In this document: positions 1 to 64,000 of the stretch, piece by piece | How the letters are laid out: each line of letters begins with the position of its first letter | How positions within the stretch are numbered: position 1 is the stretch's first letter | Source: Psammoneis japonica | Lineage: Eukaryota | Reading direction: 5' to 3' | Assembly: GCA_008632985.1 (NCBI GenBank) | Contig: QPGO01000065.1 | Coordinates: 310,001-374,000 of the forward strand | DNA length: 64,000 nt | Made by a program: the position numbers and the translations under genes | Notes under the pieces: generated by a model | The model's input: the letters and a program-made list of their open reading frames with translations, nothing else | What the model was told of the DNA's origin: nothing | The model's database searches: none

Positions 1-3000
1 CAGAACATGGTCTGTGGAGCAACAGCACTGCCGTGTCTGGTCAGTTGGGCACCATGTTGATGCTTTGGGGCAGAGCTTTGTGTGCACTTGCAGCAGTGAG
101 AAGCAACAAGCAGCTTGCAAACTTTGCACAACATTTGGAATTCAAAGGAGCACCACAAGTCACCAACTTTCTCTGGAGACATGGACAAGACAAGATGGAA
201 CAATTGCTTGCTCATTTTGCATCATGCCATCTTAATGCAAAATGTGCATTTCTCCCTGGTGATCACAAATTCATGCAGTGTCTCTGGTGGCTTGAGCCAA
301 GCACTTGTTGGGCAACTCTGTCCTTTGAAAATGGCTGTCACATTGTGCAGCTGCTGTGCATCAGCAGCAGCATGCTGAGGGAAAGGCAATCTCAACTTGA
401 GCCGACTTTTGAGTGACTTTTCTTGTGTCAACAACATGAGGGCGGGTGAGATCAAAAGCCACTCTTTTTTTTAGAGCACAGCTGTTGCAATGTGGACCCT
501 GATTTTTGCACAGTCACCAACTTGCAATTGCTTTGATGAGTGGGGAACAATGTCCCCCCGTGCATTTGCAAATGCTTTGACATGCTGACAAGGCTCTCAC
601 CAGAGCACATCAAACCAAGTGGCTGCTCTCTTCATTTTGCCCCACTTTTGTTGCACCAACAATTGCTCCACAACACAAAGGGTCATCATCTTGGGGAGCA
701 AAGTTTTCTGTTTGTCTCTGCATGAGCAAACAAGCCAACAAAATCTTCCATTTGTTTGTGTGTGGCTGTTCATTGGGAGCCTGTGAGATGCAACAAGTCA
801 GAGAGTGTTTTTCTTCTGTCTTGCACAAAGAGAACACAAAGAGAGACACACTGTGACTCACCTTTTTTCTCTGGAAACATGGACAAGACAAGATGGAATG
901 GTTGCTTGCATCATGTTGTTTGATGTCATGCCACAACAATGCAAAAGATGCATTTCATTCTCCCCAGCAGAGCAGAGCTCAATTTGAGGCCCAGTGTGAA
1001 TTAAGACCCTTGTGCTGTCAGGCTCAAATGATGGATGATTCAAGGCAAGAGCTCCACAAAAACATCACAGGAACAGTGTGCGATGAATGGTCAATGGCCA
1101 TTTCCACCTGCAGTGCAGCTGCAAAAAGGTGACTGTGCTGCCACAAATGGAGGTCCAAATGAACAACACTGCACCAATCCTCATCATGTTGATGCATGGG
1201 TGGATCCTGAGCAGCTTCATTGCTGCAGTCCATGGATCAATTGGCTTGCTCCTCATGGCTCTCCTCTGTTTCTCCAGTGCCTCTCATTGAACTCTTCTGG
1301 CTTTTGAAAATTTCAACTGGTTTCTCCTTGTTGCGCTGACCTTCATGAACAAAGATGACACAGTCAACAAACATGACAGAGCACATTCTTCTGTCTTTGG
1401 ATGCTCATTTGGCAGGGCCATGGCGCATCTTTTATGTCACGTCAATGCAGTGCAGGGATCCTGCACAGGACACAGTGCCAATTCCATGCATGTGATGTGG
1501 AGGGCCTTGAATCATGACCATGTTGTCATCCTTGCTTGTCGGACGTTTTGGTTCACATGCCAAAACTCATCAACCACCCAGATTTGAAAAAGTGGAACAA
1601 CTTTTTTTCTGACAAGTTCAATGTGATCTTTCATGCAAATGCACAAAAGTGTGAAATTCGCGCGCATCATGTTGTCTGCATGGGTGCAGTTCTTGGCCGG
1701 GCCTCAACTGCGCTCCACTCTAGAAGTTGTTGCAAATTCATGCTTTCCACTTTCTGTGCAGTCTCTGTGGTGGCTGCTGGCTAGAGAGGTGCTGTCAGTT
1801 GAAGTGAAACGTCATCATGCACGCATGCCAACCACTCAAATTTTCAAAAATTCTCCGCACAAATTGGTGCTTTCTCAAACCCCTCACCCGGCACATCCCA
1901 GAACTGCCACAAAAAAAAGGTGAGGGACCTGGATCCTTTTTTAAAAGGTGAGTTTCTTGACACCCTCCTGGATCACATGCTGAAAAAGGATCCAGGGAAA
2001 CAAAGAGAAAGATCTCATTTCCCCGGAAAAGGAACATGGCTCTCATTTCTTTGCGACATTGCACAAAAGTTAGGATGCTGCACACACTTTGCTCTGACAT
2101 GGCCCTGGCAGCAGTCTGGCACATTTTGTTTGGTCTTCAGGATGAAGTGTGGATTTGCACATTGGACGATCTGGGTCTCATTGATTGCAATTGGCCATGT
2201 TTGTTCTGGACTTTGTCCGCAAGGTGTCGGCTGCTCGAGCCGCCTTTAAACCCCGACCTTTGCATCAGAAGAGGCTGCTTTCAATGTTGATCGGGTTGCT
2301 TTCTTGATTCATGTGTCATGTGCCGAGAACCTGGACAATTTAAATTGGGAGCTCAAGATAAAATGCACCAACCTCATCAAAGACGGAAATGACATCCTTG
2401 TCTTGTCCCTGTGATTCAAGCTGCAGAAAATGCCGGTGCATGCTGCACCCATCTGAGAAGCGCTGGTCCAACCGTCATGACATTGAGCAGTGGCGCTTCT
2501 GGAGATGTCTTTGCACAGCACAAGAAGGAAAGGAAAGGGTTGATTCTGCGGTGGCCAAGGCCATGAGGGAGATTGCTGACTCACTCGGCATTCTTCAAAA
2601 AATCCACATGACTAACGCCGCCAATGAGGGCGCACGGGCTGTCAAGGTCGAACCGCCCATTCTTCTGGAGAGATCACTTGTTGAGACAACATCTAAAGAA
2701 AGGCACCCTTGTGCTTGGTGTCTCTAACTTTAACTTTTAAACTGCACAACAAACTTGCACACCGTGCTGGTGAACAAACATCGCCTTTGGAGATCAACGC
2801 TTTAGCACTGCGAACTCAAGGGGAACTTCGCACCCGCCTTCCACCGACAGCTTTGCGAGGAGATCCCCACGCTAAGTAAATTTGACTTGGCACTCCTCTG
2901 TTGACATGTCCTTCATGAATCGTCGTGAGAAATGACCCCATCCAACATGTGAACCTGTTCCGGTTCATCCAAGTCAATCATGAGTTGTTTGGACAGCTTA

Positions 3001-3370
3001 TCTTCAATGTTCTGAGACGTGACAACACCTGGATGAACCACATGAGTGTTGGGATCGACTTTACACCTCTAAGCTACGCCCCAACAGGACGGGTTTCGGT
3101 TTAGCACGGACCAAAAAGAAATCACTATCACACAGTGTATGATGTCCAGTGCACCACTCACCTCTTTGCGCCACAAGTAATCAGAGCGGTAGACTGGTGA
3201 CGAGAATGGAGACCTGGACATTTAAAAAACGGGGGACAGCGCGCACGCGCACAGAAACACGAAATTCCGATTCAAAAAACCAACCGTCACCATGACCGTC
3301 AGTTTGTTGCGTCCGTCTCATCCCGGTGGTCTGCATTAATGTTGTTGCTGCATGACACATCCATTTCATC
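1..3370. other. TpA-depleted (and largely CpG-depleted) degenerate repeat/TE-derived block
   Basis: Manual count: 3 TpA in bases 1-1200 (TTAA, TTAG, TTAA). ORF-track peptides here contain essentially no Tyr and are Cys/His/Trp rich. Internal diverged repeat ~160-260 vs ~860-965 (ctctggaRacatggacaagacaagatggaa). Confidence 0.85.
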
Positions 3371-5717
3371 CGCTATGGGCATAAAAGGCTGCCAATTGCT
3401 GGTGTGTCACCTTGTCGAGAAGGATGGAATGTCGTTTGATGACTGATGACTCATGCACCGTTTTGCGGCACAGAGCGACGGTGCGTGATAGAGAGACGCT
3501 GCATTTGTATGTTGACGCCAGTTGGCTTGTCTCGGAAACATGTCAATCTCATCAGTGGACCCATGCCGTTGGGAGATGGTGTGCAGTCGGTGCAGCTGAT
3601 GGATTTGTGGATGGTGCAGCACTTGGCATGACTGCAGGCATGCGTGACGGTGACGGCACCGGTCAGTGCGACAAAGCTCCCATCACGTTTCGTATAAGTT
3701 GTCCTCGTCATCAATCAAAACGGTACAGGTGCACACGCGAAGAATTGTTAAAATCTGTGGTTGGCATTCTGGTGCCTCCGCCCGCATGGAGAACAAGGAC
3801 AAAAAGTGGCTTGTTGACTTGAAACTGCATCACGTCGAAGTTGTGTTGTTTATCCAGCCAATTGCACTGGCGGCGGTTGGAGCCTGTGTACTACTGTCAA
3901 TCAATGTGGTTGTATCCTTTTTATCTGGTGGCGGTGGGTACCCCTGCATGCTACTTTTGCTGGTGGTGGTTGGAGCTTTTTTGCGACTAGGCCCCAGCAG
4001 TGGTAGAAGTGGGAGCTTATGTACTGCCAGCACTGGTGGCGGTGGGAGCCTGTACCGGTACAGTAACACCACTGGCACTGGAGGTGGTTGGAGCCTTTTG
4101 CCACTAGCACTGGTGGCAACAGGTGCCTGTGCACTGCTGTTGTAGCACTGGTGGCGGGCGGTGGGAGCCTGTGTAGCTGCCAGCACTGGCGGCGGTTGGA
4201 GCCCGTGTACTGCTAGCAAAATCGAGGTGGTTGGATCCTTCTATCTGGCGGCGGTGCCTGCCCCTGTATAATGCTGGCACTTGTGGTGGTTGGAGTGTTT
4301 CTACTGCTGACACTGGTGGCAGTGGGAGCCTGGTTACTACTTCTAGCACTGGTGGCGGTGGGAACCTTCGTAGCTGCTGGCACTGGTCGAGTCGGTTGGA
4401 GCGTGTGTAGGCTACTGCCAGCAATCGAGGCGGTTGGAGCCTTTTTGTCTTTGTCTGCTGCTGGCACTAGTGGTGGTTGGAGCGTTTCTGCTACTAGAGC
4501 ACTGGTGGCAGTGGGAGCCTAGTTACTGCTAGCACTTGTGGCGGTGGGAACCTGCGTGGCTGCTAGCTAGCACTGGTCGAGGCGGTTGGAGCGTGTGCAG
4601 GCTACCACCAGCAATCAAGGCGGCTGGAGCCTTTTTGTCTTTGTCTGCTGCTGGCACTGGTGGTGGTTGGAGCGTTTCTGCCACTAGAGCACTGGTGGCA
4701 GTGGGAGCCTAGTTACTGCTAGCACTTGTGGCGGTGGGAACCTGCGTGGCTACTAGCTGGCACTGGTCGAGGCGGTTGGAGCGTGTGTAGGCTACCACCA
4801 GTAATCGAGGCGGCTGGAGCCTTTTTGTCTAGTGGCAGTGGGTATCTCTGTGTGCCACTGGCACTGGCGGTTGACAGTGGGAGCCTGGTTGCTGCTGCCG
4901 GTGGCACTGGTGCGGTGGGATGCCGGCACAGGCACTGGAGGCGGTGGGATCCTCATGCTACTAGCACTGGTGGCAGCAGGTGCCTGTGCACTACTGCTGT
5001 AGCACTGGTGGTGTTGGGAGCCTGCATGCCACTGGCGCTGGTGGTAGTTGGAGCCTGTGCACTACTGGCTATCGAGGCGGTTGAATCCTTTACAATACGA
5101 TCACAAAGACACACTGCTAGAAGTGCTGGATCACGACAGACACTTAGAAGCAGTCAATTTCAAACCGGTAAAAGAATTTCCAAAGACAATGTAGAATAGC
5201 AGTGGATAGAATTGCATCATTAAATGTGATTACTTGATAGATGATCGAGTCGAAACCGCATTGTTGAATGCGCAGCACACTGCACCACCAACTTTAAAAA
5301 AAGTCTAGCGTGTTTCATTTGCACTCTGGTGTCAACTGCTTCCATCTGAAAATCGTCCATGCCAGATCCGCCCGAGTTCTTGTTATCTAGGAACCTGCGC
5401 CATTGAGCAAGCGTAAGCTGGCATCAAGGTCAACTCGAACGCTCCGACGTGAACGAGCATGTGACACATGGCTTGCCTTTGGGTTCCAGGCTAATTTTAT
5501 GCACAATCCTTCAATGTAAATATGTAACATCAATGACTGCTTCTTTGTGCTGACAATGAAGGAGTTGTTTTGCACTATCTTGTTGTCTCTTACAACCTTT
5601 TCAACTGCCTTTCTCGCAACCGCTTGATGTCGGATCTTTTGATGTGCTTGTGTGTTTTTCGATTTTTCGCGCAGCGCCGCGCTGTCCCCCGTTTTTTAAA
5701 TGTCCAGGTCTCCATTC
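3204..5717. mobile_element. Non-autonomous TIR DNA element, 2.5 kb, perfect 40-bp terminal inverted repeats and 4-bp target-site duplication ACGA
   Basis: 3204-3243 GAATGGAGACCTGGACATTTAAAAAACGGGGGACAGCGCG is the exact reverse complement of 5678-5717. ACGA at 3200-3203 and at 5718-5721. No transposase ORF recognised inside. Confidence 0.85.
3850..5085 (-). repeat. Low-complexity tandem repeat, minus strand encoding broken TQAPTATSA-type Thr/Ala/Pro/Ser repeats (mucin-like pseudogene cargo), with a 190-bp higher-order unit
   Basis: Recurrent gcactggtggcggtgggagcc motif. The near-identical unit gYaatcRaggcggYtggagcctttttgtct recurs at 4421, 4611 and 4801. Frames are broken by stops and shifts. 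Confidence 0.75.
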
Positions 5718-7824: not shown

Positions 7825-10032
7825 GGTAAAGCACCCAGAAGCCCAGAAGGAAACCAGCAACTTGCCAACGAAACACAGTCACTGCCTGCATGTTGGACGC
7901 AGGACGCACAGCGCTTTCAAGATGAGCCGTAGAAATAGCCTGTACTGTACGGAACGGTCGGAGACATTTCTACATAAAGGAGGGAAGACATTTCTACACT
8001 TATAGGAGGGAAGAAGGGTCATTGCTCTTTGTTACGTTTGTTGTCAGTTGACACTTTCCTCATGGATTCTCATGGATCCTCTTCATACAAATCTACGAGC
8101 GGAACTGAGTAGGGCGGAGCAAGGTCATAATTACAAAAAGTCATTTTCATATACTGCGTTTGCTTCGTATAAAGTACGAGAGAAAGTCATTCAATTGACA
8201 AAACGGTCATTTTCTCAGTCATCCACATGAATCCACATGGTATAAATCTACGTACGAGAAATCAACGGTCAATGCAAAGAGTCATTCTCTAAACTCCGAT
8301 TCCTTCGTACAATGTACGTGAAAAGTCATTGAAAATTTCAAAATTTCCATGAGGATGACTGAGGATTCGTGAGGATCCGTGAGGATCCGTGAGAAAAAAA
8401 ACACACGACACAAACCCGACCCCCCAGGTCGCTGTTATGAGCTTAGCATCCAACGCCGTCGCGATCGCTGCTTTCTGTGGTTGTACTAGTACGTAGGTGT
8501 CGTGTGACTGAACCGTCACTTCAGCTGGGATCGAAGACATGTCGAGACCGCGACGCTGTCCCAGCCGACGGACAGTGGTCCTTGCTACGACAAGAACAAG
8601 AAACCCTGCCAAATCATCGATCTCTTTGGATTGTTGAATGCTCTTTCTCTACCGGAACGCTACATCATCACGACATGCCATCGTCTTGTGGTTTTGGTGA
8701 CGGATGAAATCGAGAGGTACCAGATAGTGGCTGCTGGAAGCAAGGTGAGCTTCTAAAGACAGACAACGAATCTGGAAATGGCTGTCATCTAACTGAGACA
8801 CCGCTCATTGTTTTTACAATTCTATGGGTTTTTTGTGGAATCAATATGCAGACTGCTAAGTTGAAATTTCGAAGACTCACCTTTACGAAGGAGCAGGAGC
8901 AGGCGAAAAAAAGAGGACGCTAAAGCCGCTCGACGCGTTCTTTTCTGTGTTTTGGACACGAGTTTGCGTCTGCTACACCCCTAAATGCCTTACGTGACTG
9001 AGACTTGCGGATTGACCTCGGATGGAAGCTGTAAGAACTTTCGAATGTTTTCAGGCTCTCATTCGAAGTATCCGTAACACGAGGGCTGAGTACAACGTTA
9101 AGCCGGGGAGCGAACCAGGGCGACTGTAGTCGCGAGCGAAGATCTGCTTTAGGACATTGAAACAGAGCTCAAATCTCTTGTTGCTCTTGCTAAGCTCGAC
9201 CCGGATAAGGTAGCTGTGCGTGCAGCTGGAAGTAAAGATGCCAAAGAAATGATGGAGATTGGCGAGTCTGTTAAGATTGTAGTCCAAGATGGCGTTAAAG
9301 CGAATTTGCCGCTCTCGGGATTGATTGACGCTGAGAAGGAACGCCAGTGGTTGCAAAAACAAAGCGAAAAGCTGACAATGGAGATCCAGAAGCTTACATG
9401 GAGATTGAAGTCCAGTGGATTTGTTGATAAGGCACCTGCTGCTGTTGTACAGCAAGCCAGGATTAGCTTGCAACACTGGAAGATCACTTTTCCTAAATCG
9501 AAAGCAGCCTTTTGGCATTTCCCAAGTAGAACTCTCAGATTTCGTCTTATCTATATAGAGCATCTCTCTAGCTAGTTCAAAACTAACTTCACGTCTTCTT
9601 CCCCAGATTTGATGATTGAGGAAGGGGTTATGGCAACTGAATGCTGAACAAGACACATTGTCAAGAACAGAATAAGGCGAGCGAAGCTTACAATTGAACC
9701 GCCGACTATTACAAACTACTCTCCTTGGTAGAGGGAGTTTTAGCATTACTTTCGAACATGCAAACTTAGTCGATTGCAGTTGTACGACGTCGATGGACGT
9801 TCCCACATGCCAGAATTGCAAAACATGCTTTGCATTGACATTCAATGTTCAGATACATCTCAACTTGACTAGAGCACAGTGCTCTACAGAACAAGGCAAT
9901 CAAAGGGAACCGCCGACTGTTGCAAATTACTCTCCCTCGTGCTCATCGAGGGAGCATTGGCATGAGTTTCAAACATGCACACATGTGCTAGATGGACGTT
10001 GCTAGAGGGCCCAGCAGCAACAACATCGCGAC
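7825..10032 (+). repeat. Segmental duplication copy A (inverted relative to copy B 20750-23160 and copy C 37636-39540)
   Basis: Near-identical ORF translations in all three places (e.g. MTLSSWILMDPL..., ...ERQWLQKQSEKL...). Copy A lacks ~320 bp at ~8640 that is present in B and C. Confidence 0.95.
8640..9480 (+). pseudogene. Valyl-tRNA synthetase C-terminal fragment (copy A), intron retained, with stops and a deletion
   Basis: SLPERYIITTCHRLV; gtgag...intron; LDTSLRLLHP*MPYVTE; LIRSIRNTRAEYNV; LPLSGLIDAEKERQWLQKQ...RLKSSGFVDKAPAAVV (ValRS anticodon-binding domain and coiled-coil arm). Confidence 0.85.
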
Positions 10033-12190
10033 GCCTGCCAACTTGCTTGCCAATGCGTTGACATTGCATGGATTGCTGATTTGCTTGGGGTGTGCTGTGC
10101 GTCAAACCGTGGGAGGAGAACTGGTCAGTTATGAAGACATTTACACAAGCGTGACCAGTCCAAGTCCTCATCGGGACCAATGGCATTTGTTGTTCATCGG
10201 AACAAGTGCATGACATGACGTGCAGGATTCAGCATGTTGGTTTGGACCTGGCCGGGAATTGGACCTTGCGTTTTTCGCTGGTCCCTGCGTGCTTGTTTGT
10301 GTCTTCTGTGCAGGTGTTGCTGTTTGAAGGCTCCATTGCACCTGCCAGGTCCTTTGCAAGAGGCGGCCCATGGAGAATTTAAACATGAGCTGTTCTTTGC
10401 CTTACTTTCTCTGAAGCCTTCTTTGGCATGGTGTGGTGGAAGGGTTTTGGAGATTCCGCTCAGAAGGTCTTCCAACTGGCTGCTTGGCCACCTCTGTGCA
10501 ACTGTCATTGTTGCGGGCATTTGCACCTTTCCACTGCCCATTCTCCCACTCTTCAAACTGCTTTTCATTCCATGACTATTGCTGCAGATCACCGGCATCC
10601 CAGCCCATCCAATCAAGATGCGCGTTCTGACGCTGCCATCAACACGCAACTTTCAATCGGCTCTCTGTGTGTCTGCTCGCGATTGTCATGGCATGCACCG
10701 TGGATTGCCAGCTGGACAAGGTGGTTTGTCTCATGGGATCAATGCTGGGTTGTCCCATCTTGGTCTTTCCGCCGCAGAATTTGCAATCGGCTGGATCCCA
10801 ACATTGCACCTTCGAGAACGTTCTTGAATGACGTCGTGTCGGGGATGGGTTTCATTGCAATGGTCGTTGCATCCACAATCACCATTCTCACATGGAACAA
10901 CAGATGAAACAGATGCTCGAGCAACACATCCCTTTCTTTTTAACTGATGGAGACTTCATTGGACTTTAACAACTTTGCCTTGACGTCTTCATTGGATGCC
11001 TTGTCCGGCATGTCTTCATTCAATGCTTGTTTTGGTTCCGGTGACGACCCGCCAGAGTCACAAAGGGGTCCTTTAGAGCCAAAAAGCGAGATTCGCCCGA
11101 GCTCTTTCGAACTTCCTTGCAGGTCCTGCGACATGTGCTCAACTCTCTCCAAGCCAAGCCGTTCAAGCATGGAAGTGGCTTTCTTGCTGCATCGCTGCCT
11201 GCCTTTTGAGCTGGTTTTGTTCGGCCATCACAGCACTTCTTCGTCAATCTGATTTTGTTGCTCAACCATGGATCCTGTGACAAAAGGAGCGGAGAGAGCC
11301 CGTTGTTTGATCAAAGTCCGGTTCATGCTTCGTTCCTTCATTTTGGACATTCCTTCACAACCGCGCATGTAAAACAGGCTCCTTCTCCAAGCAACCATGC
11401 CGACTTGACTTCGCCTCACGTGGCATCATCCCCGGTTCCCTCCGAGTCTACTCGATCATCCACGAAAGCTCTCGGGTTTTGACGTCGACACTGTCATCAC
11501 ACGCCAGCAGCGACGGTTGACGACGATGATTGCACACTCTCGTTTGCGGCCTCTTCTCGCCCATGCCATTTGATGCACTGCTCACCATCGACACCAACAA
11601 ACTCCATTGTGTTGCTGATGACATTATGTACGGCAACAACTGCATTCATTCATCATTGGAGAATTCTGTTTTCAATGACACGTGTGCCAAATTCGCAAAG
11701 ACGTTTCGAGTGGGTCCACAATGTGACGCTCTCCCGTGAGACCTGGGCCCATGTGCGGCATGCGAAGTGTGGCACTTCAGATCTTCCCAGTCGCAGGTCT
11801 ACTCTAGTGGTCTCTCGACAGGAAAGAGTGTGAAGCATCCACTGGTTCTCTTTCACGCACATTGTTGAGACAACTGCTGTCGGTGTTTCCAAGTGACGGG
11901 ACACTGCACCAGCACCAGTGCAAGAATGATGACACTGAAATGCAAGTCCATGGCTCGACCAATGGTTGTTGGACAGCAAATAGTGGCAGGTGCCGTGCAT
12001 CATTGTTGCACATCTTGTCGCTCGAGACGACGTTGATGCGTGCTCCATGTGATTGCAAAATCTTGTCCGCAAAAGTTCAACACACTTCTTCCATTTCTTT
12101 TCTTGGTTGATGGAGGACGAGTTCCAGGTCTCGAAACTGAAAGCCAATGTTGCAATCACAGAACGACTTGCCCGCAATGTCACACCGGTA
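9760..12190. other. TpA-depleted block of degenerate, probably TE-derived sequence
   Basis: Very few TpA. Left edge aligns with TA-rich paralog 20750-21090 and shows directional TA>TG/CA changes. Confidence 0.85.
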
Positions 12191-12726
12191 AGCTTTTTCT
12201 CGATGCGATGCTGATGGTGCTTGCATCTTCAATCTGGCATCCTTTTTTTTGTTTGTGCTCTATCGCGTTCATCTTATCGGTTGTAGGCGTGTGTTCGCCA
12301 TCATGACAAATCAAAAACGTTCGTTACTGGAGCGTTTTTATTATTCAAAGTCATACGCGCTCTTTCTATACCTTATATATTAATGTTTTTTGAAACACAT
12401 AAAAATCATTTGATTAGATGGACTGAAATTTTCCAAAGGGGGTACATCACGATTTTTTTCAGTCGGACTAATCAAATTCAATTTTATATGCTATACGGCG
12501 CATAGGATATAAATTATATCTTCTACGTTGCCATAAAGAAGACTTTCATACCAATCTCATTTCCGTAGATATTGATTGAGACACAGATACGACGACGACG
12601 ACTCTTTGTGTAGGGCCCCTAAAGTAGAACACAACATCGTCAAAAAATACACCGTAGTCCTTACTACCGTAGCCCTAATCTTCTCTAATATAGTAGAGGG
12701 CCATCTACTAGAGTATGGAGTAGGGC

Positions 12727-23399: not shown

Positions 23400-23900
23400 C
23401 TCATGGTTGGTCTTTGCGGTGTGTTGTGAAAGACATGTGGAACAAAAATTGTGTGGGATTCTACGCAGGTCTCTCTGGTCACCCGGAATTGAGGACACCT
23501 GTGACATTTTTGGCGACCGCGGACAGCGCAATCCCCATGATTCCCATGATGATGTTGGAAGCGACGCACAATCACAGCACTGTGAATTGGAAAGGAGCCT
23601 CTCGACTTTGTTGTCAGAGATCTTCTGCTCGTGAAAATGTCTTGGTTCAGCACTTTGTTGCTTGTGGTTTTTGAATTGTTGCAATTTCATTCTTTTGTTG
23701 TTGGGAGATGATGAATGTTGTGCAATTTAGAGCCATTCTCAACTGTGGCACTCAGCGTTACTTCGAAAGACCCCACTCTAGTTGCCGGGCAAAAAACACT
23801 CGAGCGCAATTTGGCGGGGTCGCTGCAGATTTTCGTGAGGCGTCCGTCCTTGTGGAGAAGCATTTTGTTGCGTTGGGGTGGACTTTTCTCCTGTGCCATC
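23400..23900. other. Small TpA-poor patch
   Basis: Only a handful of TpA over ~500 bp, against TA-rich flanks at 23160-23390 and beyond 24270. Confidence 0.5.
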
Positions 23901-50388: not shown

Positions 50389-53300
50389 TCACATGCTCTT
50401 GCCGGTGCTAGATGACGGTGCGGACGGTCTTGGCTGTAATTCCCCCGACCAATAGGGGATGCCTCCTGGTGCATACTGCTGTTGCTGCTGCAACTGCATC
50501 TGTTGTTGCAGTCCCATTCCCTCATAAGATTGCGGAGGAAGCTGTTGCGGGACGATTCCATGCGACATCGGATGAATCGGGGCAGACATTGCAGCGGCGG
50601 CGTACTGCATAGGAGCCACACCTGTACCATGACTACCATACATTATTGGAGCCTGTGCGGACATCATTTCAATTTGTTGAGGAGTGACCATAACATGACT
50701 TCCGTCGGGTGCAACATAGTAGTAAACGTTCATTTGAGGGGGCATCGACCCTCCAGCACCATACATCCCAGGGCTTACTCCATATCCACCATACGGGAAA
50801 GAAGCCGAAATCTGTTGCTGTTGCACATTGGGATCCACCATAAGCGGCGGTTGGTCCTGCGTCTGTTGGTTTACACCTGACTGATCAGCCAGCTGCTGCG
50901 ATAGTAAGCTCGTGGCGCCGGCTGCTGTCACTCCATGCGGCTGCATGGAACCGTCATTTGCAACATCGTAGTCAGCACCGTCTTCAAGAATGGCGGGTCT
51001 TGATGATAGCGCGCGGGAACCGCGATGCGCCGGAGATGTTGGGTTATTCATGGAATTGAACGTGTGTCTGGTTCGACTAGAAGGCTTCGACTGCGCATTC
51101 GAAAAGCTACCGGAACGCATTGGCGGTCCTGGGCGCGCATGCATAAGTGGGTTAATTTGATGAGGTGAGAGAGCTCCGGCAGGAATCGTAGCCATGTGTG
51201 GATACACTACCGGTAGCGGAGTTGATGCCATGTCACCACCCATACCGGGAACAACTCCAGGACGCTGCAAGGCGTAACCCAATTCCGCCTCAATTGGCAA
51301 GTGCTGTATTCCATCGGGTGTTAAACCTGAGAAGCTCTGAGCACCAGATGGAAGGTAGACCGGTCGCTGGTGACTCGCGTTGATATCCCCGATTCCGCTG
51401 CTTACGCTATGGATTAATGGGGATGCCATCGGCGTCATTCCCCCGTGAACCACGGCCCTATGATGAGGATAAACATCAGAAAGACTGGACGCCGCAACGT
51501 AAGCAGAGCGTGCGAAATTTGCCGCATTAGCCATGACAGGAACGCCACTCCCATCAGTCTGATATACCCCAACCTGAACAGCCCCAAAACTACTTGCGTT
51601 GGATGAAGCGTTGACCGCGACCGGATGGCTACCTTGATTATGGGCGGCATGGCGTTGCGTAGCAGGAGTTACCTGATCAGCGGTAGCCGCATGTTCGATT
51701 GACTTTGGGGGAGAACCAGATGCTCCGGAGCTCGCAATGTGTTGAGGAGCTGAGTGCGCCTTTGTGTCGAGAGACATGCTCTCTGCCATGGCCGTTACTC
51801 GCGATGCACTAGAAAGACGAAACACAGGTAAGTTCAAGAGTAAAGGATGGACAAAATATCAGCATGCTGCGCGATATCATTGTAGCTTACCTATTGTTTC
51901 CGGACATTGATTTTTTTTCGCGTCGGGCTGCCTCATACTTCTGCCTAATCGCCTGCTGTCGCTCTCGCGTTTTTTGCACATGGAGGAGCCTTCGGCGGCA
52001 AATAGACGGATCCCACGGCGGCACCCAGTAAATGTCAAAATCATTCTTCTCTTCTCCGTCAGAGTTTGTACTTTGCTTTCTTCTGTGTAGCTTGCTCCCG
52101 CTTATGAAGGGATGCTGTGAAGCTTGGAAAGCGGTCCATCTCTTCCATGGATCGGGGTCAAGAATGCCTACAATGGACAAAAACAAATGAGCAAAGGAGT
52201 TTACAAGTAAAAAGTGGCGGCCAAAACCGAAGCTTACCCATGAGAAAGTGAACAAACAACCCCACAGCCTCTTGTTCTTCATCCGTCCTATTCGACCCTC
52301 CATGCATCATAACAATATCTGTCAGCTTCGTCCTCTTGAAGTATCGATTGGTGGGTTGCTTCTCTAGCTTCCGCAGCCCGCCTTTCTTTCGGATTTCTTC
52401 TTCTGAGAGGCCATCGAGATATTCTTTCTGTGTCTTGATGCGCCATGATGGTTTTGGAGGAGGAGGCGAAGATGACGGCTTCTTGTCGCTATCTGTGCCG
52501 GCTTGTGGCTGCATCGGAGTTGAAGTACTTTCCGACTTGGAAATGAACTTTACAAAGTACTTGGACGATTTAGTACTGAACAAAGAGAAGTAGCGAGCAG
52601 CAAGAAATGAGCACGTGCGTCCTTTCAAAAGAAGTAATAAATACAAAGAATGGCACGTACCCTTCGCCAAGCATTTTGTCTGGAATGGGTCCAATCATTT
52701 CACAAATTCGCCTCAGCTGATCGTGCTCGTGAACACCGGGTAGTATAGGCAACCCGAGGAACAGCTCTGCCGCCACGCAGCCCAAGGACCACATGTCAAT
52801 AGCGGAATCGTACGGTAGCCCTAGAAGAACTTCCGGGCTGCGGTAAAACCGAGACTGAATATAGGTATGAGCAGTGTGTCCCTCAAAACAAGCCGAACCG
52901 AAATCAATTAACTTGATATTGATCGAACCAGACTCCTTCTCAGTCAGTAAGATATTCTCAGGCTTCAAATCGCAATGTACGATCGATCGCTGACACAACT
53001 CCTTCACGCCGTCCATCGCTTGCGCGAGCAGCGATCGAACCTTTGTCAAGGGTAATCCTCGGAATTGGCGTTGTTTCAACACCTCATATAAATTCAACCC
53101 CAACAATTCAAACACCAAGCAAAGGTGATTCTGATGCGTACTGTACGACTGCAGGTGTACCATCTTGCGGTCTTTCGCTTGAACGTTAATGGCCAAGCCA
53201 TCCTTGTCTTTACTCAGTACCCGAAATACGTCAATCTCCACAGCTGCTTGCTGTGTGTAAGCTTGCCTATTCTTCACCACTTTCAGGGCCACAAAGCGAT

Positions 53301-54895: not shown

Positions 54896-55800
54896 CCGGT
54901 AGAAAATCTGTGGCGCACAGATTTCGGTTCAGATCTTGTTCACCAGATTTAGCACAGATTTTCAAGGGTCCACAGAAACAGGCACAGATTTTCAAAAAGC
55001 ACAGATTGTTGACTGGTGCTGCCCAGGCTCTGGATTTGTGCCACTGAAACTGCCACACACAAAATGATGCTGAAACCAAAATTAAAAAACCACAGAATTG
55101 ATCCTCCCCCTCGTCCTTTGCGTCACTTCTTCCATCAAAGCCCTCCGACTTTTTGAGCACAGTTGCCGCATCTTCACCCACTGCATTGTTGATTGAGCTG
55201 AGCAGTCTGTCCCTGCACTGTGTTGCTGTTTCAGCATCAACGATGGCTGTGCATGGGTCGGGGTCATCAGTTGGATGTTGGATCCTTTTGCAGCAAGTGA
55301 TCAAGAAGAACTTGCAAACAAGTTCCTCTGGCACCTTCTCCCATGCATCCACTGTCCGCTGTGCAATGAGTTGCCTTGATGGAGCAACAGGATTCCCAGC
55401 AGCATTGACAGGGGCTTCCAGCATGTGTGAATCATGCAGATCCTGACAGAATGTCTTCCACATTTTGTTGATCAAAATGGCAAGAGGCTGGGCTTTGGGT
55501 GCACACAACTCTTCCCGCCATTGTCAAGAAGTGCAGCTTGTGGGTTGGAGCTGCCCTGCCTTTGACACATTGCTTCAAACACCCCACAAATTTGTCAATG
55601 AGAGTGCTGCTGGCATTTCCATTTTCCTTTCCCATCTGAGTCAACAACTCCAATGCCTGGAAGAATGACGTGTGACCCAACATGTCGTTTGTGAGCACAC
55701 CTGATGAGTTGGCAGTCTTTGACACTGTCATCACTGTCTTGTCTTTGGAGAGACACTCGCTGCCGTGGCTGTCTTTTTTGTGTGTTTGGTCATCTCACAC
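54896..55800 (-). mobile_element. Degenerate pogo-like (DDE_1) DNA transposon end and transposase remnant
   Basis: PKAQPLAILINKMWK...MLEAPVNAAGNPVAPSRQLIAQRTVDAWEKVPEELVCKFFL resembles the DDE_1 C-terminus (QPLD...NK...PSRQ...WV..AW..IP). Begins TA|CCGGTAG with subterminal cacagatt repeats and a hairpin at 54904-54924. Partner TIR not found. Confidence 0.7.
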
Positions 55801-56134
55801 ATGTGAAGGGGCACAACGCTGCTTCAACTTGCGCTGATGTGTCTCTCACCTTCACTCCCTGACCACCAGGGAGCTTCTGCCCAGCTCCCAATTTCCAAGT
55901 GCACAACAAGTTGTGCTGCTTCTTCAATCCATGGCAGAACCAAGTTTTCAACTGCTTCATTCAGTGCTGCTCTGGTTGTGTGGATGAGGGACAGAGCTTC
56001 GTTGCCTCTCTGAAAATTGTCGAGTGGGCTGTTCTGCATCCCGCGCTGATGCTCAACTCAGCAGGCCTTTTCTCAAGCTTGCTTTCCACTGCCTTCAAGG
56101 TGTTGCCAACCTTGTGGCCCCATTTCTCCTCAGT

Positions 56135-56570
56135 GTGAGCAGTGGCAGATGCAAGGCATGCTCTTTGTTTGCTCAGAGAAAGAGCCTCCAATTTTATGCC
56201 GTGCAGCAACAACCCCTCCTTTCCTTTCTTGTGAGCATCTGAAACCAGCTTGCATGTCCTTTTGTGTGTCTCATCTTTGCAAGATCTGCTCCAGGACATG
56301 TGGAAGTTATTTTGGACAAGACAGGTGAGGTCTTTCAGTTTGGAGCCACTTGAGATTGCCTCATGAGCAGCAATGTGCCGCTTGCTGGTTTGTTGCTTTC
56401 CACAGGTTGGGCTCCAACCTGCTGACAACCCAAGCAACTGCCAATCTCCACGCTGCATTGTGGCAAGATGAATGGCTTCAGAAACATCACAAGAGATGCC
56501 AGCTGCTCCTCTTTTCCTTGAGGCATGAATTGCTTCTACACAAGCATGTTGCTGTTGCTTGTGTCATTGC
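56135..56570. repeat. Diverged direct repeat of 61970-62230 plus 62870-63020
   Basis: Shared ctgctccaggacatg..gaagtt..ttggacaagacagg and tggcaagatgaatggcttcagaaa..tcacaagagatgccagctgc. Confidence 0.85.
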
Positions 56571-57369
56571 CGTTGTCATCAACCAAACTCATGATGCTCT
56601 CCACTCAATCCTTCTGGCTTGAAGCAGCACTGTGTGCTGGCTTTGACTCATTGCTTGATGGCCTCAAAAAATGGGTGGCTTTGTGAGTGACCATTTTCTT
56701 CCTCTTCTGCTTGGGAACAGTGCTGCAGAAAGAGCACATGCATGGCCCATTTGCCATTGTCACCCCCCAAGTTTTTGGCCCATTTTTTCATCTTTGATTC
56801 ACTTGTGCTGGCACTGTCATCTTCAGTGGCTTTGACACCAGCACTGAAGCTGTCATGGATGGGCAATGGGCAGGTTTTTGTCTCATCAAACTCACCCTTG
56901 TGCAGCATTTTGAACTCAGCTAGAAACACTTGGTGCTTGATTGGTTTGCATGGCAGAACACAATCCTTGCAAAGAAGGTCCTCCCATTGTGGCATGGCAA
57001 CATTTGTTTGTTTCCTTTGTGCAAGATGGGTTCTTGTCAGAGAAACACTTTCTTGTGGCATCATGTGCCGCCGCCCACACTGGCTTCAACAGGGCTTCAT
57101 CCAAAGCTGCACTCTCCTTGGATGCCATTGTTGTGGCAAAGACATGATGAGTGGAACGTTGCTGCAAAGAAATGATGTGCAGACAACTGCCACCAAAAAA
57201 CTCAAAAACTGACATCATGAAGTAGACTTTTTGCAGTTTTCTGCAGGCAATCTTGGCACAGTCTGTGCAATGCTCCAACTGGATGGGAGAGAGAAGACTG
57301 AAGAAGATTCTGACTTCAAGAACTGAGCAAGGCACCAACAACCATGTTTGGCACAATTTGTCACCACAG

Positions 57370-60300
57370 TTGTCTCTGAGGGCATTCAAAAGTTCCCAAG
57401 GTGAAGCCAGGGAACACTTTGAGAGCAGTGGTTGAGAGCAGCAAGGCTTGTCTGCTGGCGCAGCTGTGCAACACCAGACAAAGCCTGCAAAGTGAAAGGG
57501 CATCTTGATGCAACAAACCAACCCAACAACAGCAGGCTGAGAGCATTGAAGGTCTCCGGTGCAACCCAGGGACCACTTTGAGAACAGTGGTGGAGCACTG
57601 CAAGGCTCATCTGGTGCAGTTGCATTCCCCAGTCACTTCATCCATGCCAGAGTGAGAGCTGCAAGACACCTGCTGGCTCCAAAGCGAAAGGACACCCTGG
57701 TGCAACCAACCAAACCACCAACTGCAAATTGAGGGCATTGAAGGTCTCCAAAGAATCCCAGCAAACATTTTGAGAACAGTGGTGGAGTGTTGCAAGGCTC
57801 ATCTGGTGTGCAAATGCAATGCCCCAATCACTTGGTCCATGCCAAAATGAAATGAGAAAAATTCCCAACTGCTCCACAGTGAAAGGACACTGTGATGCAA
57901 TCAACAAAACCCAACAGCTGTGGGCTGAGAGCATTGAAAGTCTCCAGAGGAACCCAGAAAACACTTTGAGAATGGCAGTGAATTGTTCTTTGAGAATGGC
58001 AGTGGAGTGTTGCAAGGCTTGTCTGATGCGCACATGCAATGCCCCATTCACTTGGTCCATCCCAAAGAGAAAGGAGAAAAATTCCCAAATTGCCCTGGAG
58101 TGAAAGGACACTGTGGTGCAAACAATCAACCCTGCAACTGCAGGCTGATGGCATTGAAGCTTTTCAGAGGAACCCAGAAATCAATTTTAAAATGGCAACT
58201 GAGCACTGCAAGGCTCATCTGGTGCTGTTGCAGCCACCAGTCACTCAGTTCATGCAAGAGTGCTCTCAGAGCTGAAAAACTCCAAACTCCTCAGAGAAAG
58301 AACACACTGGTGCACCAGCCAACCCAACAACTGCATGCTGAGGGCATTGAAGGTCTTCAAAAGGACCCAGGGAACACTTTGAGAATGGTGGTGGAGTGTT
58401 GCAAGGCCCATCTGTTGCAGTTGCAGCCATCAGTCACTGAATGCATGCCAGAGTTTGAGCAGAACAACCCATGACTCCACAATGAAAGAACATCCTGGTG
58501 AAACCAAGCAGCCAACCCAGCAACAACTGCTTGCTGAGAGCACAGAAGGACTTCACAGGAACCCAGGAAAGACTTTGACAATGGCAGCAGAGTGTTGCCA
58601 GGCCTGTCTGGTGCAGTTGCACCCACCAGTCACTGAATGCATGCCAGAGTGAGAGCAAAAAAACTCCTGACTCCTCAGAGAAAGAACATCATGATTCAAC
58701 CAATCAACCCAATGCCTGCATGCTGAGGGCATTGAAGGTTTTCAGCAGAACCCAGAGAACACTTTCAGAATGGTGGTGGAGTGTTGCAATGCCCACCTGG
58801 TGCAGTTGCAGCCACCAGTCACTAAATTCATGAAAGAGTGCTCAGAGTGGAAAAACCCCTGAGGACTCCTTAGAGAAAGAACACCCTGATGCAACTGACC
58901 AACTCAAGAACTGCTTGTTGAGGTCATTGAAAAGCTCCAGAGGAATGTTGGGAACACTTTGAGAATGACAGTGGAGTGTTGAAGGGCTCATCTGGTGCAG
59001 GCGCAGCCCCAAGTCACTTGATCCATGACATGGTGAGAGCTGAAATTCCCAACTCCACAATGAAAGAACACACTCATGCAAACAACCAACCCAACAACTG
59101 CAGGCTGAGGGCATTGAAGGTCTTTTGAGGTGCCCACCAAATGCTGTGAGATTGGTGGTGGGGTGTTGAAAAGCCCATCTGGTGCAATTGAAACCGCCAG
59201 TCACTGAGTGCTGCATGCCAGTGTGAGAGCAGAAAAACTCAAAACTCTTCAAAGAAAGAACATCCTGATTTAACCAACAATCCCAACAACTGCATGCTGA
59301 GGGCATTGAAGGTCTTCAGCAGAACCCAGAGAACACTTTCAGAATGGTGGTGGAGTGTTGCAATGCCCACCTGGTGCAGCTGCAGCCACCCGTCACTAAA
59401 TTCATGAAAGAGTGCTCAGAGCAGAAAATCCCCTGAGGACTCCTCACAGGTGGAAAGAACACCCTGATGCAACCAACCAACCCAAGAACTGCATGCTGAG
59501 GTCATTGAAGGTCACCAGAGGAATGTCAGGAACACTTTGAAAATGGTCATGGTGAAGTGTTGAAGGGCTTGTCTGGTGCAGGTGCAGCCCCAATCCACTT
59601 GATCCACGACATGGTGAGAGAGCTAAAATTCCCAACTCCACAATGAAAGAACACACTCATGCAACCAACCAACAAAACAGCTGCAGGCTGAGGGCATTTA
59701 AGGTCTTTGAAGGCACTGCAAAACACTGTGAGAATGGTGGTGGAGTGATGCAAGGCCCATCTGGTGCAGCTGCAGCCACCAGTCACTGAGTGCACGCAAG
59801 AGTGCTCTGAGCAGAAAAACTTTAAACTCCTCCTTGGAGAAAGAACATCATGATGCAACCAACCAACCCAACAACCCCACAGGCCAAGGGCAAGGAACCA
59901 AGAAAAGGCTTTCAGAATTGTGGTGGAGTGTTGCAAGGCCCATCTGGTGCAGTTGCAGCTGCCAGTCTCTCAAGAATTCATGCAAAAGCATTGAGAGCAG
60001 AAAAACTCCACCAAACTCTGCAGAGAAAGAACACCCTGACACAGCCGACCAACCCAAGAGCTGCATGCTGAGGGCATTGGGGGTCTCCTGTCAAACTCAG
60101 GGAACAAATTGAGAATGGTGGTGGAGTGTTAAAGTGCTCATCTGGTGCAGGTGCAATCCCCAGTCACTCAATCTGTGACATGTTGAGAGCTGAAAATCCC
60201 AACTCCACATTGAAAGACACATTCATGCAACCAACAAACCCAACAACTGCAGGCTATGGGCATTGAAGGTCTTCAGAGACACCTGCAAAACACTGTGAGA

Positions 60301-63300
60301 ATGGTGCTGGTGGAGTGTTGCAAGGCCCATCTGCATGCCAGAGTGAAAGCAGAAAAACTCCCAACTCCTCAAAAAAAGAAAATCCTGACATGCAAGCAAC
60401 CAACCCAATGACTGCACCCTGACAGCACCGAAGGTCCTCAGAGGAACCCAAAGAACACCAAGGGCCATCTGGTGCAGTTGCAGCCACCGCCAGTCACTCA
60501 ATGCCTGCAAGAGTGCTCAGAGCAGAAAACTCCAAACTCCTTGGAGAAAGAACAACATCATGATGCAACCAACCAACCAACCTGACAACCAGCGCCGGCT
60601 GAGATCATTGAAGGTCTTTAATTTGAACCCAGGGAACACTTTGACAATGACAGCAGAGTGTTGCCAGGCCCATCTGTCGCAGTTGCACCCACCAGTCACT
60701 GAACGCATGCCAGAGTGAGAGCAGAAAAACTCCTCACTCCTCAGAGAAAGAACATCATGATTTGACCAATCAACCCAATTCCTGCATGCTGAGGGCATTG
60801 AAGGTCTTCAGCAGAACCCAGAGAACACTTTCAGAATGGTGGTGGAGTGTTGCAATGCCCACCTGGTGCAGCTTCAGCCACCAGTCACTAAATTCATGAA
60901 AGAGTGCTCAGAGTGGAAAAACCCCTGAGGACTCCTTAGAGAAAGAACACCCTGATGCAACTGACCAACTCAAGAACTGCTTGTTGAGGTCATTGAAAGG
61001 CTCCAGAGGAACGTCGGGAACACTTTGAGAATGGTGGTGGAGTGTTGAAGGGCTCATCTGGTGCAGGTGCAGCCCCAAGTCACTTGATCCATGACATGGT
61101 GAGAGCTGAAAGTCCCAACTCCATACAAAAGAACACACTCATGCAAACAACCAACCCAACAACTGCAGGCTGAGGGCATTGAAGGTCTTTGGAGGCACCC
61201 ACAAAACAGTGTGAGAACAGCAGCAGAGTGCTGCAAGGCCCATCTGGTGCAATTGAAACCACCAGTCACTGAGTGCTGCATGCCAGTGTGAGAGCAGAAA
61301 AACCCAAAACTCTTCAAAGAAAGAACATCCTGATTTAACCAATCAACCCAACAACTGCATGCTGAGGGCATTGAAGGTCTTCAGCAGAACCCAGAGAACA
61401 CTTTCAGAATGGTGGTGGAGTGTTGCAATGCCCACCTGGTGCAGCCACCAGTCACTAAATTCATGAAAGAGTGCTCAGAGCAGAAAATCCCCTGAGGACT
61501 CCTCATAGAAAGAACACCCTGAGGCAGCCAACCAACCCAAGAACTGCATGCTGAGGTCATCAAAGGTCACCAGAGGATGTCAGGAACACTTTGAAAATGG
61601 TGGTGAAGTGTTGAAGAGCTTGTCTGGTGCAGGTGCAGCCCCAATTCACTTGATCCATGACATGGTGAGAGAGCTGAAATTCCCAACTCCACAATGAAAG
61701 AACATGCTCATGCAACCAACCAACAAAACAACTGCAGGCTGAGAGCATTGATGGTCTTTGAAGGCACCCACAAAACACTGTGAGAATGGTGGTGGAGTGA
61801 TGCAAGGCCCATCTGGTGCAGTTGCAGCCACCAGTCACTGAATGGATGCAAGAGTGCTCTGAGCAGAAAAACTTCAAACTCCTTGGAGAAAGAACATCAT
61901 GATGCAACCAACCAACCCAACAACCACAGACCAAGGGCAAGAGAAGCCAAGAAAACACTTTCAGAATGTCAGTGTGAACAGTGGCAGATGCTAGACATGC
62001 TCTTTGTTTGCTCAGAGAGAGCCCCTCCAATTTCATGCTGTGCAGCAACAACCCCTTTTCTCCTTTCTTGTGTGCATCTTAAACCAGCTTGCGTGTCCTC
62101 TTGTGTGTCTCATCTTTGCAAGCTCTGCTCCAGGACATGCAGAAGTTTCTTTGGACAAGACAGGCAAGGTGTTTCAGTTTAGAGCCACTTGAGATTGCCT
62201 CATGTGCAGCAATGTGCCACTTGTCAGTTTGTTGCTTTTTCCTTTGTTGTTGCACCGCCAACCCTTCTTGGTGGCTTTTTTGAGGAATCTTGGATTTCTT
62301 GTCCTCCAGATTTTGAGATTGCTTTTGCAACATTGTTTCAGTGTTTCTTCTTGTTGTGCTGCCCAAATGTTGAAATGTGTGCAGCTCTGCCAAAGGTGGA
62401 TTGCCCTGTTGCACTTCATGTTGTGTGCAATCCCATGTGAACAAAAATTGGGGTGCATCATTGGCACATTGGTCTCATGCATGGAAAAAACAAAAACATC
62501 CAAGCAGCACCACACACTTGCCGAGCCTCTGCATTGGCAAGTGTGGCATCAGCCCCAGCCATTTTTGCCTCCCCTTCATTGCTCGTTTCCTGAAACTTTT
62601 CTTTGTCACAACCACAATGAGGGTGTGATGCTGCTGGCCTTTTTCTGTTCTATCTTTTGGCCTTGTCAGCAAGGGCCCCAGGTGCATCATGTTGGTGTCA
62701 CTGGCAGCACTGCCACCACCAAGGACATGGCAGCATCCAAGGATGTCCTCAGTTTTGTTGCTCTTGATGCCACACATTCATCAAGAGTTGCTGCCCAAAA
62801 CTCTCAAGAGCTGGGGACTCTTTCCAATTTTCCGTCTCCCAATTCATTGCCATTTTCACAAGTTTGGCTCCACCCCAACAACCCAGCTGCCAATCTCTGT
62901 GCTGTGTTGTGGCAAGATGAATGGCTTCAGAAATGTCACAAGAGATGCCAGCTGCCCCTCTTTTCCTTGAGGCACAAATTGCTTCCACACAGGCATGTCA
63001 CTGTTGCTTGTGTCATTGCCAAAAAATTCCCAAATTGCCCTGGAGTGAAAGGGTGCAATCAATCAACCCTGCAACTGCAGGCTGATGGCATTGAAGGTCT
63101 TCAGAGGAACCAAGAAATCAATTTTAAATTGCCTTGGAGTGCTGCAAGGCTCATCTGGTGCTGTTGCAGCCACCAGTCACTCAGTTCATGCAGGGGTGCT
63201 CTCAGAGCAGAAAAACTCCAAAAACTCCTCAGAGAAAGAACACCCTGATGCAACTGACCAACTCAACAACTGCTTGTTGAGGGCATTGAAGGTCTCTGGC

Positions 63301-64000
63301 AGAACTCAGGGAACACTTTGAGAATGGTGGTGGAGTGCTGAAGGGTTCGTCTGGCACAGGTGCAGTCCCCAGTCACTCAATCTGTGACAAGGTGAAAACT
63401 GAAATTCCCAACTCCACAATGAAAAAACACACTCATGCAACCAACCATCCCAACAACTGCAGGCTGAGGGCATTGAAGGTCTTCTGAGGCACCCACAAAA
63501 TGCTGTGAGAATGGTGGTGGAGTGTTGAAAAGCCCATTTGGTGCAGTTGAAACCACCAGTCACTGAATGCTGCACGCCAATGTGGGAGAGCAGAAAAACT
63601 CAAAACTCTTCAAAAAAAGAACACCCTGATTTAACCAATCAACCCAACAACTGCATGCTCAGGGCATTGATTGAAGGTCTTCAGCAGAACCCAGAGAACA
63701 CTTTCAGAATGGTGGTGGAGTGTTGTGATGCCCACCTGGTGCAGCTGCAGCCACCAGTCACTAAATTCATGAAAGAGTGCTCAGAGCAGAAAATCCCCTG
63801 AGGACTCCTCATAGAAAGAACACCCTGATGCAACCAACCAACCCAAGAACTGCATGCTGAGGTCATTGAAGGTCACCAGAGGAATTTCAAGAACACTTTG
63901 AAAATGGTGGTGAAGTGTTGAAGGGCTTGTCTGGTGCAGGTGCAGCCCCAATTCACTTGACCCATGACATGGTGAGAGAGCTGAAATTCCCAACTCCACA
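57370..64000. repeat. Complex satellite, ~190-bp diverged monomers with a ~2.07-kb higher-order repeat, interrupted at 61970-63020; TpA- and CpG-depleted; runs off the window
   Basis: gagggcattgaaggtct...aacactttgagaatggtggtggagtgttgcaaggcccatctggtgcagttgcagccaccagtcact recurs about every 190 bp. 58655-59900 matches 60721-61950, and part of it recurs at 63230-64000. Confidence 0.92.

Follow-up and report, generated by a model that had tools for sequence, protein, structure and literature searches.

The closest described counterpart of the locus reported here is found in the chlorarachniophyte Bigelowiella natans, in which hypermutation of TpA to TpG or CpA is confined to integrated viruses (Mettrop et al., bioRxiv 10.64898/2026.01.13.699255, 2026). 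According to the main text of that preprint, 231 of the 302 new point mutations in 15 mutation-accumulation lines fell within two viral regions, a single-copy and transcriptionally silent giant virus of 186 kb and a virophage of 25 kb. Nearly all of these (230/231) were A>G or T>C, with every GC-biased one stated to lie at TpA, and they arose at about 6e-7 per site per generation, some 1000-fold above background; hypermutation was seen in only 11 of the 15 lines. The B. natans genome also holds 124 clusters of TpA-poor, CpA- and TpG-rich 1-kb windows, mostly of unannotated genes, and the authors propose, without proof, an ADAT2/ADAT3-like DNA adenine deaminase. Here we describe four blocks of TpA-poor DNA in a 64,000-nucleotide stretch of the Psammoneis japonica assembly (GCA_008632985.1, contig QPGO01000065.1, positions 310,001 to 374,000 of the forward strand). 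We call this whole stretch the window and number positions from its first letter. Judged from sequence, the blocks appear to carry the same mutational signature as the integrated viral DNA of B. natans, now in a second, diatom-like lineage.

Two better-known systems bear on the comparison. Repeat-induced point mutation (RIP) changes CpA to TpA in Neurospora and acts at TCG in some basidiomycetes (PMC3318451), and the amphioxus enzyme ADAT2 deaminates both A and C in DNA, preferring GAA and TCG, respectively, and hairpin loops (PMC10354150). An original prediction, made from the letters of the window, had proposed a domain-restricted adenine mutagenesis of TAY to TGY (Y, pyrimidine; R, purine) that is targeted to repeats and has no described counterpart. 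Its core stands, as we find an A:T>G:C change at TAY on both strands for which a deaminase is a reasonable reading. Repeat targeting is not supported, nor is novelty, since the main text on the B. natans lines reports the same signature. We consider it likely that the blocks reflect a localized, in-place hypermutation of TpA that prefers T[A]Y, has run close to saturation and is restricted to silent DNA.

TpA-poor domains were located with a 1-kb sliding profile of all 16 dinucleotides followed by segmentation, and their edges were refined from every TA position. The four blocks, A (1-2581), B (10143-12188; 10281-12125 by segmentation), C (31859-37045; 32003-37058 by segmentation) and D (55084-64000; 55045-63999 by segmentation), amount to 18,731 bp, that is 18.7 of 64 kb (29%), close to the predicted third of the window with almost no TpA and a large excess of TG and CA. 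They contain 81 TA (4.3/kb), a density 9-fold lower than that of normal DNA in the window (1,689 TA in 42,863 bp, 39.4/kb). Within the refined edges, TA counts against those expected from base composition are 11 versus 182 in A, 13 versus 123 in B, 27 versus 304 in C and 30 versus 582 in D. Within the segmentation bounds, observed/expected ratios (o/e) of TA, CG, TG and CA are 0.06, 0.25, 1.75 and 1.80 in block A (11 TA), 0.12, 0.73, 1.46 and 1.64 in block B (13 TA), 0.095, 0.86, 1.36 and 1.51 in block C (28 TA) and 0.05, 0.09, 1.96 and 1.60 in block D (31 TA). Across the 1-kb profile, TpA o/e is 0.02-0.14 in the four stretches and about 0.45-0.8 in the other 43 kb, and TG and CA reach 1.4-2.2 times expectation inside the blocks. 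The depletion is thus confirmed as real and far beyond chance.

The blocks are sharply confined. At the edge of block D, TA occurs every 10-30 bp until 54950 and then at 55083, 56195 and 56308. Block D runs past the end of the window and block A past its start; on its inner side, a partly affected zone extends to about 3000 (nine TA and no RTAY in 2501-3000). A mini-block was also foreseen at 23.4-23.9 kb, where we find a 266-bp gap without TA (23462-23728) whose adjoining TA are mostly YTAR (of nine TA in 23501-24000, none is RTAY and six are YTAR). Ten long open reading frames (ORFs) outside the blocks lie in DNA of normal TpA, as had been claimed for the intact single-copy genes of the window. 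Blocks A-D are mutually unrelated except for a 546-bp segment common to B and C. There is no tRNA or Rfam family within the window, and hence no obvious barrier element at the block edges. Weaker traces may exist elsewhere: RTAY makes up only 3 of 22 TA in 39501-40000 and 2/16, 3/19 and 3/24 TA in 8501-10000, all at normal TA density, and both zones are possibly weakly affected.

The remaining TA sites identify the target. When sites are sorted by how many strands present an adenine between T and a pyrimidine, survival (the ratio of densities in blocks and normal DNA) is 0.0225 for RTAY, with a target on both strands (5 sites in blocks, 509 in normal DNA), 0.074 for RTAR/YTAY, with a target on one strand (29 and 892), and 0.373 for YTAR, with a target on neither (47 and 288). 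The contexts of survivors differ strongly between blocks and normal DNA (chi-square 88, p 7e-20). Because the survivors are mostly YTAR (9 of 11 in block A) and RTAY is depleted about 45-fold, we identify the target as the A:T pair of 5'-T[A]Y-3', which reads R[T]A from the other strand. Independent, additive decay on each strand predicts a survival of 0.092 for one-target sites against the observed 0.074, and fits a conversion of T[A]Y about four times faster than that of T[A]R. All depletion is at TpA: AA has an o/e of 1.1-1.4 and is uneroded, as the original prediction had noted, and AT and TT are likewise uneroded in the 1-kb profile. The products follow the same pattern. In blocks A-C, the increase of TGY and RCA exceeds that of TGR and YCA, and GpC o/e is raised to 1.1-1.46 in the blocks because TAC becomes TGC and GTA becomes GCA. 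The GC content of blocks B and C is about four points above that of their flanks.

A flank of block B records the process acting on ordinary DNA. The segment 10032-8634 has an unmutated paralog at 20750-22154 (+), which retains TA where the copy on the block B side has TG or CA. Binning the TA sites of the normal copy per 200 bp from 10032 outward, we found conversion to TG or CA at 13/20, 4/14, 1/13, 0/5, 1/10, 0/7 and 2/10 sites, and the flank itself (9611-10142, with 20750-21172 as its normal paralog) is ordinary DNA in which TA has partly become TG or CA. Block B therefore has a spill-over of about 400 bp into ordinary DNA on this edge. In all, 21 TA>TG/CA conversions stand against one difference in the opposite direction, and by our own reading of the listed contexts about three-quarters (16/21) match T[A]Y or R[T]A. 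Sites that became TG are interspersed with sites that became CA, so both strands are targeted. This pair of copies bears out the claim that paralogs show A>G at TAY on both strands. Such a gradient in native flank DNA is hard to explain by imported composition.

The opposite edge of block B is abrupt, and so is the corresponding edge of block C. The two blocks share a segment of 97.5% identity (31530-32075 = 12514-11965), and in both paralogs the change from normal to depleted DNA falls at the identical base (about 31859 and about 12189), so the depletion at that edge predates the B/C duplication. In the 217 bp of shared depleted DNA, six of the seven differences that arose after duplication are transitions at YR steps (a TA/CA, an adjacent CA/TG pair, a CG/CA and, twice, a CG/TG). 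Adjacent TG<->CA exchanges would follow from a TA (or CG) that was unstable when the duplication took place and resolved independently to TG or CA in each copy. Such exchanges account for 53 of the 141 double differences in eight within-block paralog or satellite pairs, where the next type occurs 13 times, and for 1 of 20 in six pairs outside the blocks. Conversion has thus acted in place, both long ago and after duplication.

Duplication does not appear to be what attracts the process. Duplicates of 1.4-2.1 kb with 95-98.5% identity retain normal TpA in the window, and neither block B nor block C has repeat copies there, contrary to the predicted targeting of repeats. The normal pairs are 30004-31858/14087-12190, 37636-39412/21392-23173 and 38704-39523/8641-7832. 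Since such similar duplicates are untouched, we infer that chromatin or RNA, and not repetition, guides the process. As an observation in its own right, the gene for a GH47 mannosidase and the segment next to it exist as two or three paralogs that are 95-98.5% identical, lie in both orientations and have normal TpA; the paralogous segments are 30004-32075/14087-11965, 37636-39412/21392-23173, 20750-22154/10032-8634 and 38704-39523/8641-7832.

Loss of CpG accompanies loss of TpA in only some of the blocks. TpA is depleted equally in the CpG-poor blocks D and A (CpG o/e 0.09 and 0.25) and in blocks B and C, where CpG is near normal (0.73 and 0.86), so the two losses can be told apart. CpG sites of A and D with T[C]G on two, one and no strands survive at 0.032, 0.098 and 0.172, respectively (p 0.004), a modest 5'-T dependence whereby T[C]G is lost about 2-fold more strongly than V[C]G (V, any base except T). 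In B and C, none of the CpG classes shows depletion. The CpG loss of A and D is probably a separate, slower process, namely 5-methylcytosine decay in methylated heterochromatin. Such decay also yields TG and CA, but it cannot remove TpA and is near absent from B and C. The 5'-T bias of the CpG loss shares a flavour with the TpA process and with the TCG preference of amphioxus ADAT2.

The blocks hold satellite and orphan DNA. Block D contains a satellite of about 190 bp with higher-order structure (57375-63997, +; 31 monomer matches), whose monomers span 57375-61974 and 63052-63997 on either side of an interruption at 61975-63051, and TG and CA alternate between monomers at fixed dinucleotide columns. 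Block C contains an orphan ORF (P0001) at 35199-37112 on the minus strand, of 637 codons from the ATG at 37112, within an intact stop-to-stop frame of 672 codons (35199-37217). This frame is longer than the longest frame in all 400 of 400 composition-matched simulations (maximum 409 codons), which argues for a once genuine gene. Tyrosine makes up 0.16% of its residues versus 2.69% in the ten normal ORFs of the window, and cysteine 2.83% versus 1.37%, the expected result of TAY>TGY within a reading frame. We take it to be probably a fossil gene with converted tyrosine codons. TA>TG/CA cannot introduce a stop, since TAA is the sole source of TGA. The frame of a dead gene is therefore preserved, and a long ORF in a block of this kind is no evidence of function. 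A 351-codon frame in block D (62193-63248, +), rich in Cys, His, Gln, Leu and Trp and devoid of Tyr, is of a length borderline against chance (reached in 3/200 and 0/200 simulations) and is likely a by-product of stop-codon loss.

Searches gave little on the origin of this DNA. The orphan ORF has no Pfam match and no relatives in a word-indexed protein search; among 1.84 billion representatives it obtained a single marginal HMMER hit (E 6e-4), and against viral contigs nine pattern matches yielded no relatives. We ran a Pfam scan on 149 of the 204 ORFs of at least 60 amino acids from the blocks and their flanks, the 55 satellite ORFs being left out. None of the 149 matched a transposon or viral family, with weak hits below cut-off only, so that the transposon remnants which the original prediction had placed in the blocks were not recovered. 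An earlier scan of 26 ORFs of at least 100 amino acids had likewise found nothing in the blocks.

These observations probably reflect a process in which, over a long time and on both strands, the A:T pair of TpA is turned into G:C, giving TpG, or CpA on the other strand. The targets are non-genic or silenced DNA (satellite, orphan sequence and a fossil ORF), with neighbouring genes spared, and the process leaks for about 400 bp on one edge and halts abruptly at another. In the chemistry that we favour, a deaminase of the TadA/ADAT2 family may convert DNA adenine to inosine, which would be copied as G, and a chromatin state or small RNA may guide the enzyme to the blocks. The natural substrate of TadA and ADAT2-ADAT3, A34, follows an invariant U33, which places T/U 5' of the target A as in the blocks; the likeness is one of motif only. 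Bacterial TadA reads U-A-C, matching T[A]Y, and some members of the family (amphioxus ADAT2, Trypanosoma ADAT2) deaminate DNA. We hold adenine deamination by a TadA/ADAT2-type enzyme tentatively, as plausible though somewhat short of probable.

Several points weigh against this account. Amphioxus ADAT2, unlike the process here, prefers GAA for adenine and hairpin loops, and no deaminase domain occurs among the 13 long ORFs of the window. Pairs of TG/CA sites within 30 bp are, by our own count, more often of the same strand outcome than of different ones (7 versus 3), a hint of strand coordination from few sites. Rooting by three paralogs failed, as two of the copies are sisters, and we infer the direction TA>TG/CA from composition, the flank gradient and the B. 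natans experiment. No viral or foreign hallmark was found among the 149 scanned ORFs, although heavy mutation may mask their origin. A single-marker tree built on a carbamate-kinase-like gene of the window leaves the lineage unresolved. Finally, the public sequencing run that covers blocks A and B has no platform or library type on record, and its sample may be that of the assembly itself.

The main alternative keeps the in-place hypermutation and places the damage on thymine. Here, a TET/JBP-type dioxygenase would oxidize T in R[T]A, and the resulting 5-hydroxymethyluracil or 5-formyluracil would mispair with G to give T>C. Since TpA reads as a palindrome, sequence cannot separate T[A]Y>G from R[T]A>C, which describe one base-pair change. 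Hydroxymethyluracil is enriched at TpA in dinoflagellates and 5-formyluracil causes A:T>G:C, which lends the idea some substance. Adenine deamination, likewise unproven, is what the B. natans authors prefer, and we regard thymine oxidation as unlikely, if worth keeping in view.

A different kind of explanation holds that the composition was imported or selected, either because foreign (e.g., viral) DNA arrived already poor in TA or because TA is selected against, for example through nuclease avoidance. The sharp edges and the orphan content without homologs would suit it, and so would a polymorphism of block B seen in public sequencing data. One public sample matches the stretch, and we compared contigs built from exact 31-letter words of its runs at a depth of about 80-700. 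A contig from one run connects 9390 to 12515 with one extra letter, which reveals a form without the 3,124 bp (9391-12514) that include block B. A 91-bp direct repeat occurs at 31439-31529 (+), 37544-37634 and 12605-12515, and its first two copies bracket a 6-kb segment with block C; given the joint and these bracketing repeats, the blocks therefore sit in insertion/deletion-polymorphic DNA. The 6-kb and 3-kb segments that hold blocks C and B show no terminal repeats, whether inverted or direct. The run with the joint looks spliced (its joints have CT..AC ends) and leaves block A and part of block B uncovered, and its one contig listed on B differs by 59 letters and 12 gaps. Against imported or selected composition stand the gradient in a native flank with a normal paralog, the frequent TG<->CA differences after duplication, the non-coding satellite that is affected as strongly as the ORF, and a survivor context that fits a mutational motif. 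In addition, we know of no genome with a TpA o/e near 0.05. We therefore give this explanation only a slim chance.

Hardly better, and by a shade worse, is the case for an artefact in which a modified base at a genuine TA is miscalled or mispolished as TG or CA. Strand-specific miscalls at a palindromic modified site would yield TG<->CA alternation, and the runs come with no recorded library type. In the other run of the same sample, contigs reproduce the TA-poor sequence over blocks A and B; a 433-letter contig with a word depth of 78, for example, matches 479-913 with three other letters. Among the best-supported 40 of 1,330 differences between run contigs and the window, five are adjacent TG<->CA pairs (649-650, 1652-1653, 2450-2451, 2675-2676 and 11155-11156), all in or beside blocks. 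Differences are carried by all or most of the depth (78.1 of 78.1 at 649-650; 305.8 of 371.8 at 11155-11156), not by half. Exact-word contigs at depths of 78-700 thus show TA-poor sequence, both paralogs share old conversions (31859-32075 and 12189-11965), and miscalls would not readily produce the loss of tyrosine codons or the distance gradient. So far as the evidence allows, the TA-poor sequence is no artefact.

We see still less room for a biased mismatch correction, wherein T:G-specific repair that is overactive in methylated chromatin would fix G:C at TpA. Very-short-patch repair in Escherichia coli depletes CTAG, turning TA-containing words into CA or TG words, and blocks A and D look methylated (CpG o/e 0.09-0.25). 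Yet B and C lose TpA equally at near-normal CpG, R[T]A is not a CpG-derived context, and a rate of about 1000 times background, as in B. natans, far exceeds the supply of replication errors. The weakest proposal, A-to-I editing of RNA by an ADAR-like enzyme followed by reverse transcription and re-insertion, draws on the ADAR preference for U before the edited A (bioRxiv 10.64898/2026.01.13.699255, Discussion) and founders on the interleaved effect on both strands, on tandem satellite and flank DNA affected in its original place and on the lack of a reverse-transcriptase remnant in the 149-ORF Pfam scan. ADARs are also, to our knowledge, metazoan.

We return to localized TpA hypermutation and its relation to the described systems. 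Like that of B. natans, it comprises the TpA>TpG/CpA change only, occupies discrete regions in an otherwise normal neighbourhood, leaves a long-term loss of TpA with gain of CpA and TpG in clusters rich in unannotated genes, and does not require a repeated target, the main target there being single-copy. Unlike B. natans, a chlorarachniophyte, the lineage here is diatom-like. Mutations arose de novo in the B. natans lines; here the evidence of new mutation is indirect, from differences after duplication and variants between the window and the run contigs, both of which are concentrated at TA/CG steps. The blocks are also near saturation (TA o/e 0.05-0.12 versus 0.45 in the B. natans nucleocytoplasmic large DNA virus region), and the targets are satellite and orphan DNA in which no viral hallmark was found. 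The 3' pyrimidine preference, the edge gradient and the co-occurring CpG loss are likewise seen here; the words 'diatom', 'CpG' and 'trinucleotide' never occur in the main text on B. natans. What appears new on these comparisons is therefore the near-saturation, the satellite and orphan targets, the 3' pyrimidine preference and the one-edge spill-over of about 400 bp. We found no report of a TpA>TpG/CpA signature in diatoms in our literature search. Fungal RIP shares the regional, saturating transitions in non-genic DNA, the leakage into flanks and a dinucleotide footprint. Unlike the process here, however, RIP makes C:G>T:A changes that create TpA where here it is destroyed, and it needs duplication, whereas the 95-98.5% duplicates of the window are untouched. 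The signature is thus distinct from RIP, from CpG decay and from the WA (W, A or T) signature of DNA polymerase eta, as originally proposed.

A broader reading would make TpA-directed editing an old genome-defence or heterochromatin system of the stramenopile-alveolate-Rhizaria (SAR) lineages, present in chlorarachniophytes and diatom-like stramenopiles. In it, a deaminase that reads a 5' T, with a T[A]Y motif like that of TadA, would in the case at hand be guided by chromatin, not by repeats or viruses, saturate satellites and silent DNA and spread for about 0.4 kb. Acceleration of C>T at T[5mC]G by the same system might then account for the two-fold TCG bias of CpG loss in A and D. We regard this as conceivable, if on balance doubtful. 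The erasure of a dinucleotide in chosen chromosome domains would be a new kind of eukaryotic genome editing, seen so far, in the literature searched, in one preprint and one species. Its presence in a second, distant and ecologically dominant group would show that the process is not the curiosity of one alga, and that defence by genome editing may be widespread. The T[A]Y motif, the action on both strands, the combination of sharp and decaying edges, the independence from CpG and the inclusion of both satellites and genes constrain the mechanism, and the finding points to genetically tractable organisms in which the enzyme could be sought. For base-editing work, a natural deaminase of DNA adenine that recognizes a defined motif would be of interest. 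In the meantime, such blocks can mislead gene finders, as the loss of TAA and TAG stops creates long false ORFs, and they obscure the origin of the affected DNA.

The window is eukaryotic and intron-poor, with a GC content of 49%. It encodes two copies of the GH47 mannosidase, a Myb protein, a protein kinase and the carbamate-kinase-like gene, for which the named best hits, at 69-74% identity, are four diatom records (Cyclotella, Mayamaea and two Cylindrotheca); the B. natans protein stands at 69% and the best hit at 84%. We therefore describe the lineage as diatom-like, and it is plainly distinct from B. natans. Around relatives of this gene we sampled 80 metagenome loci, a small, gene-centred set with no bearing on other diatoms. 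In its diatom-like loci (GC 0.40-0.49) the minimum TA o/e in 600 bp was at least 0.26, and the low TA o/e values of the sample were confined to contigs that are GC-rich, mostly prokaryote-like and free of TG/CA excess.

Some further features lie outside the blocks. Three long ORFs with normal TpA encode no Pfam domain (42371-44959, +, 862 amino acids; 45035-49858, +, 1607 amino acids; 50389-51837, -, 482 amino acids), and the first of them had no relatives in the word-indexed search. The assembly has a single N at 22673. A GC-rich tandem repeat of 190 bp, with three copies and 91% matches, occupies 4272-4830 (wider zone, 3400-5200) and has an ApT o/e of 0.34 and many CTAG; the run contigs have numerous alternative joints here. 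RTAY accounts for only 2 of 41 TA in 4501-5500, a zone that may be partly affected.

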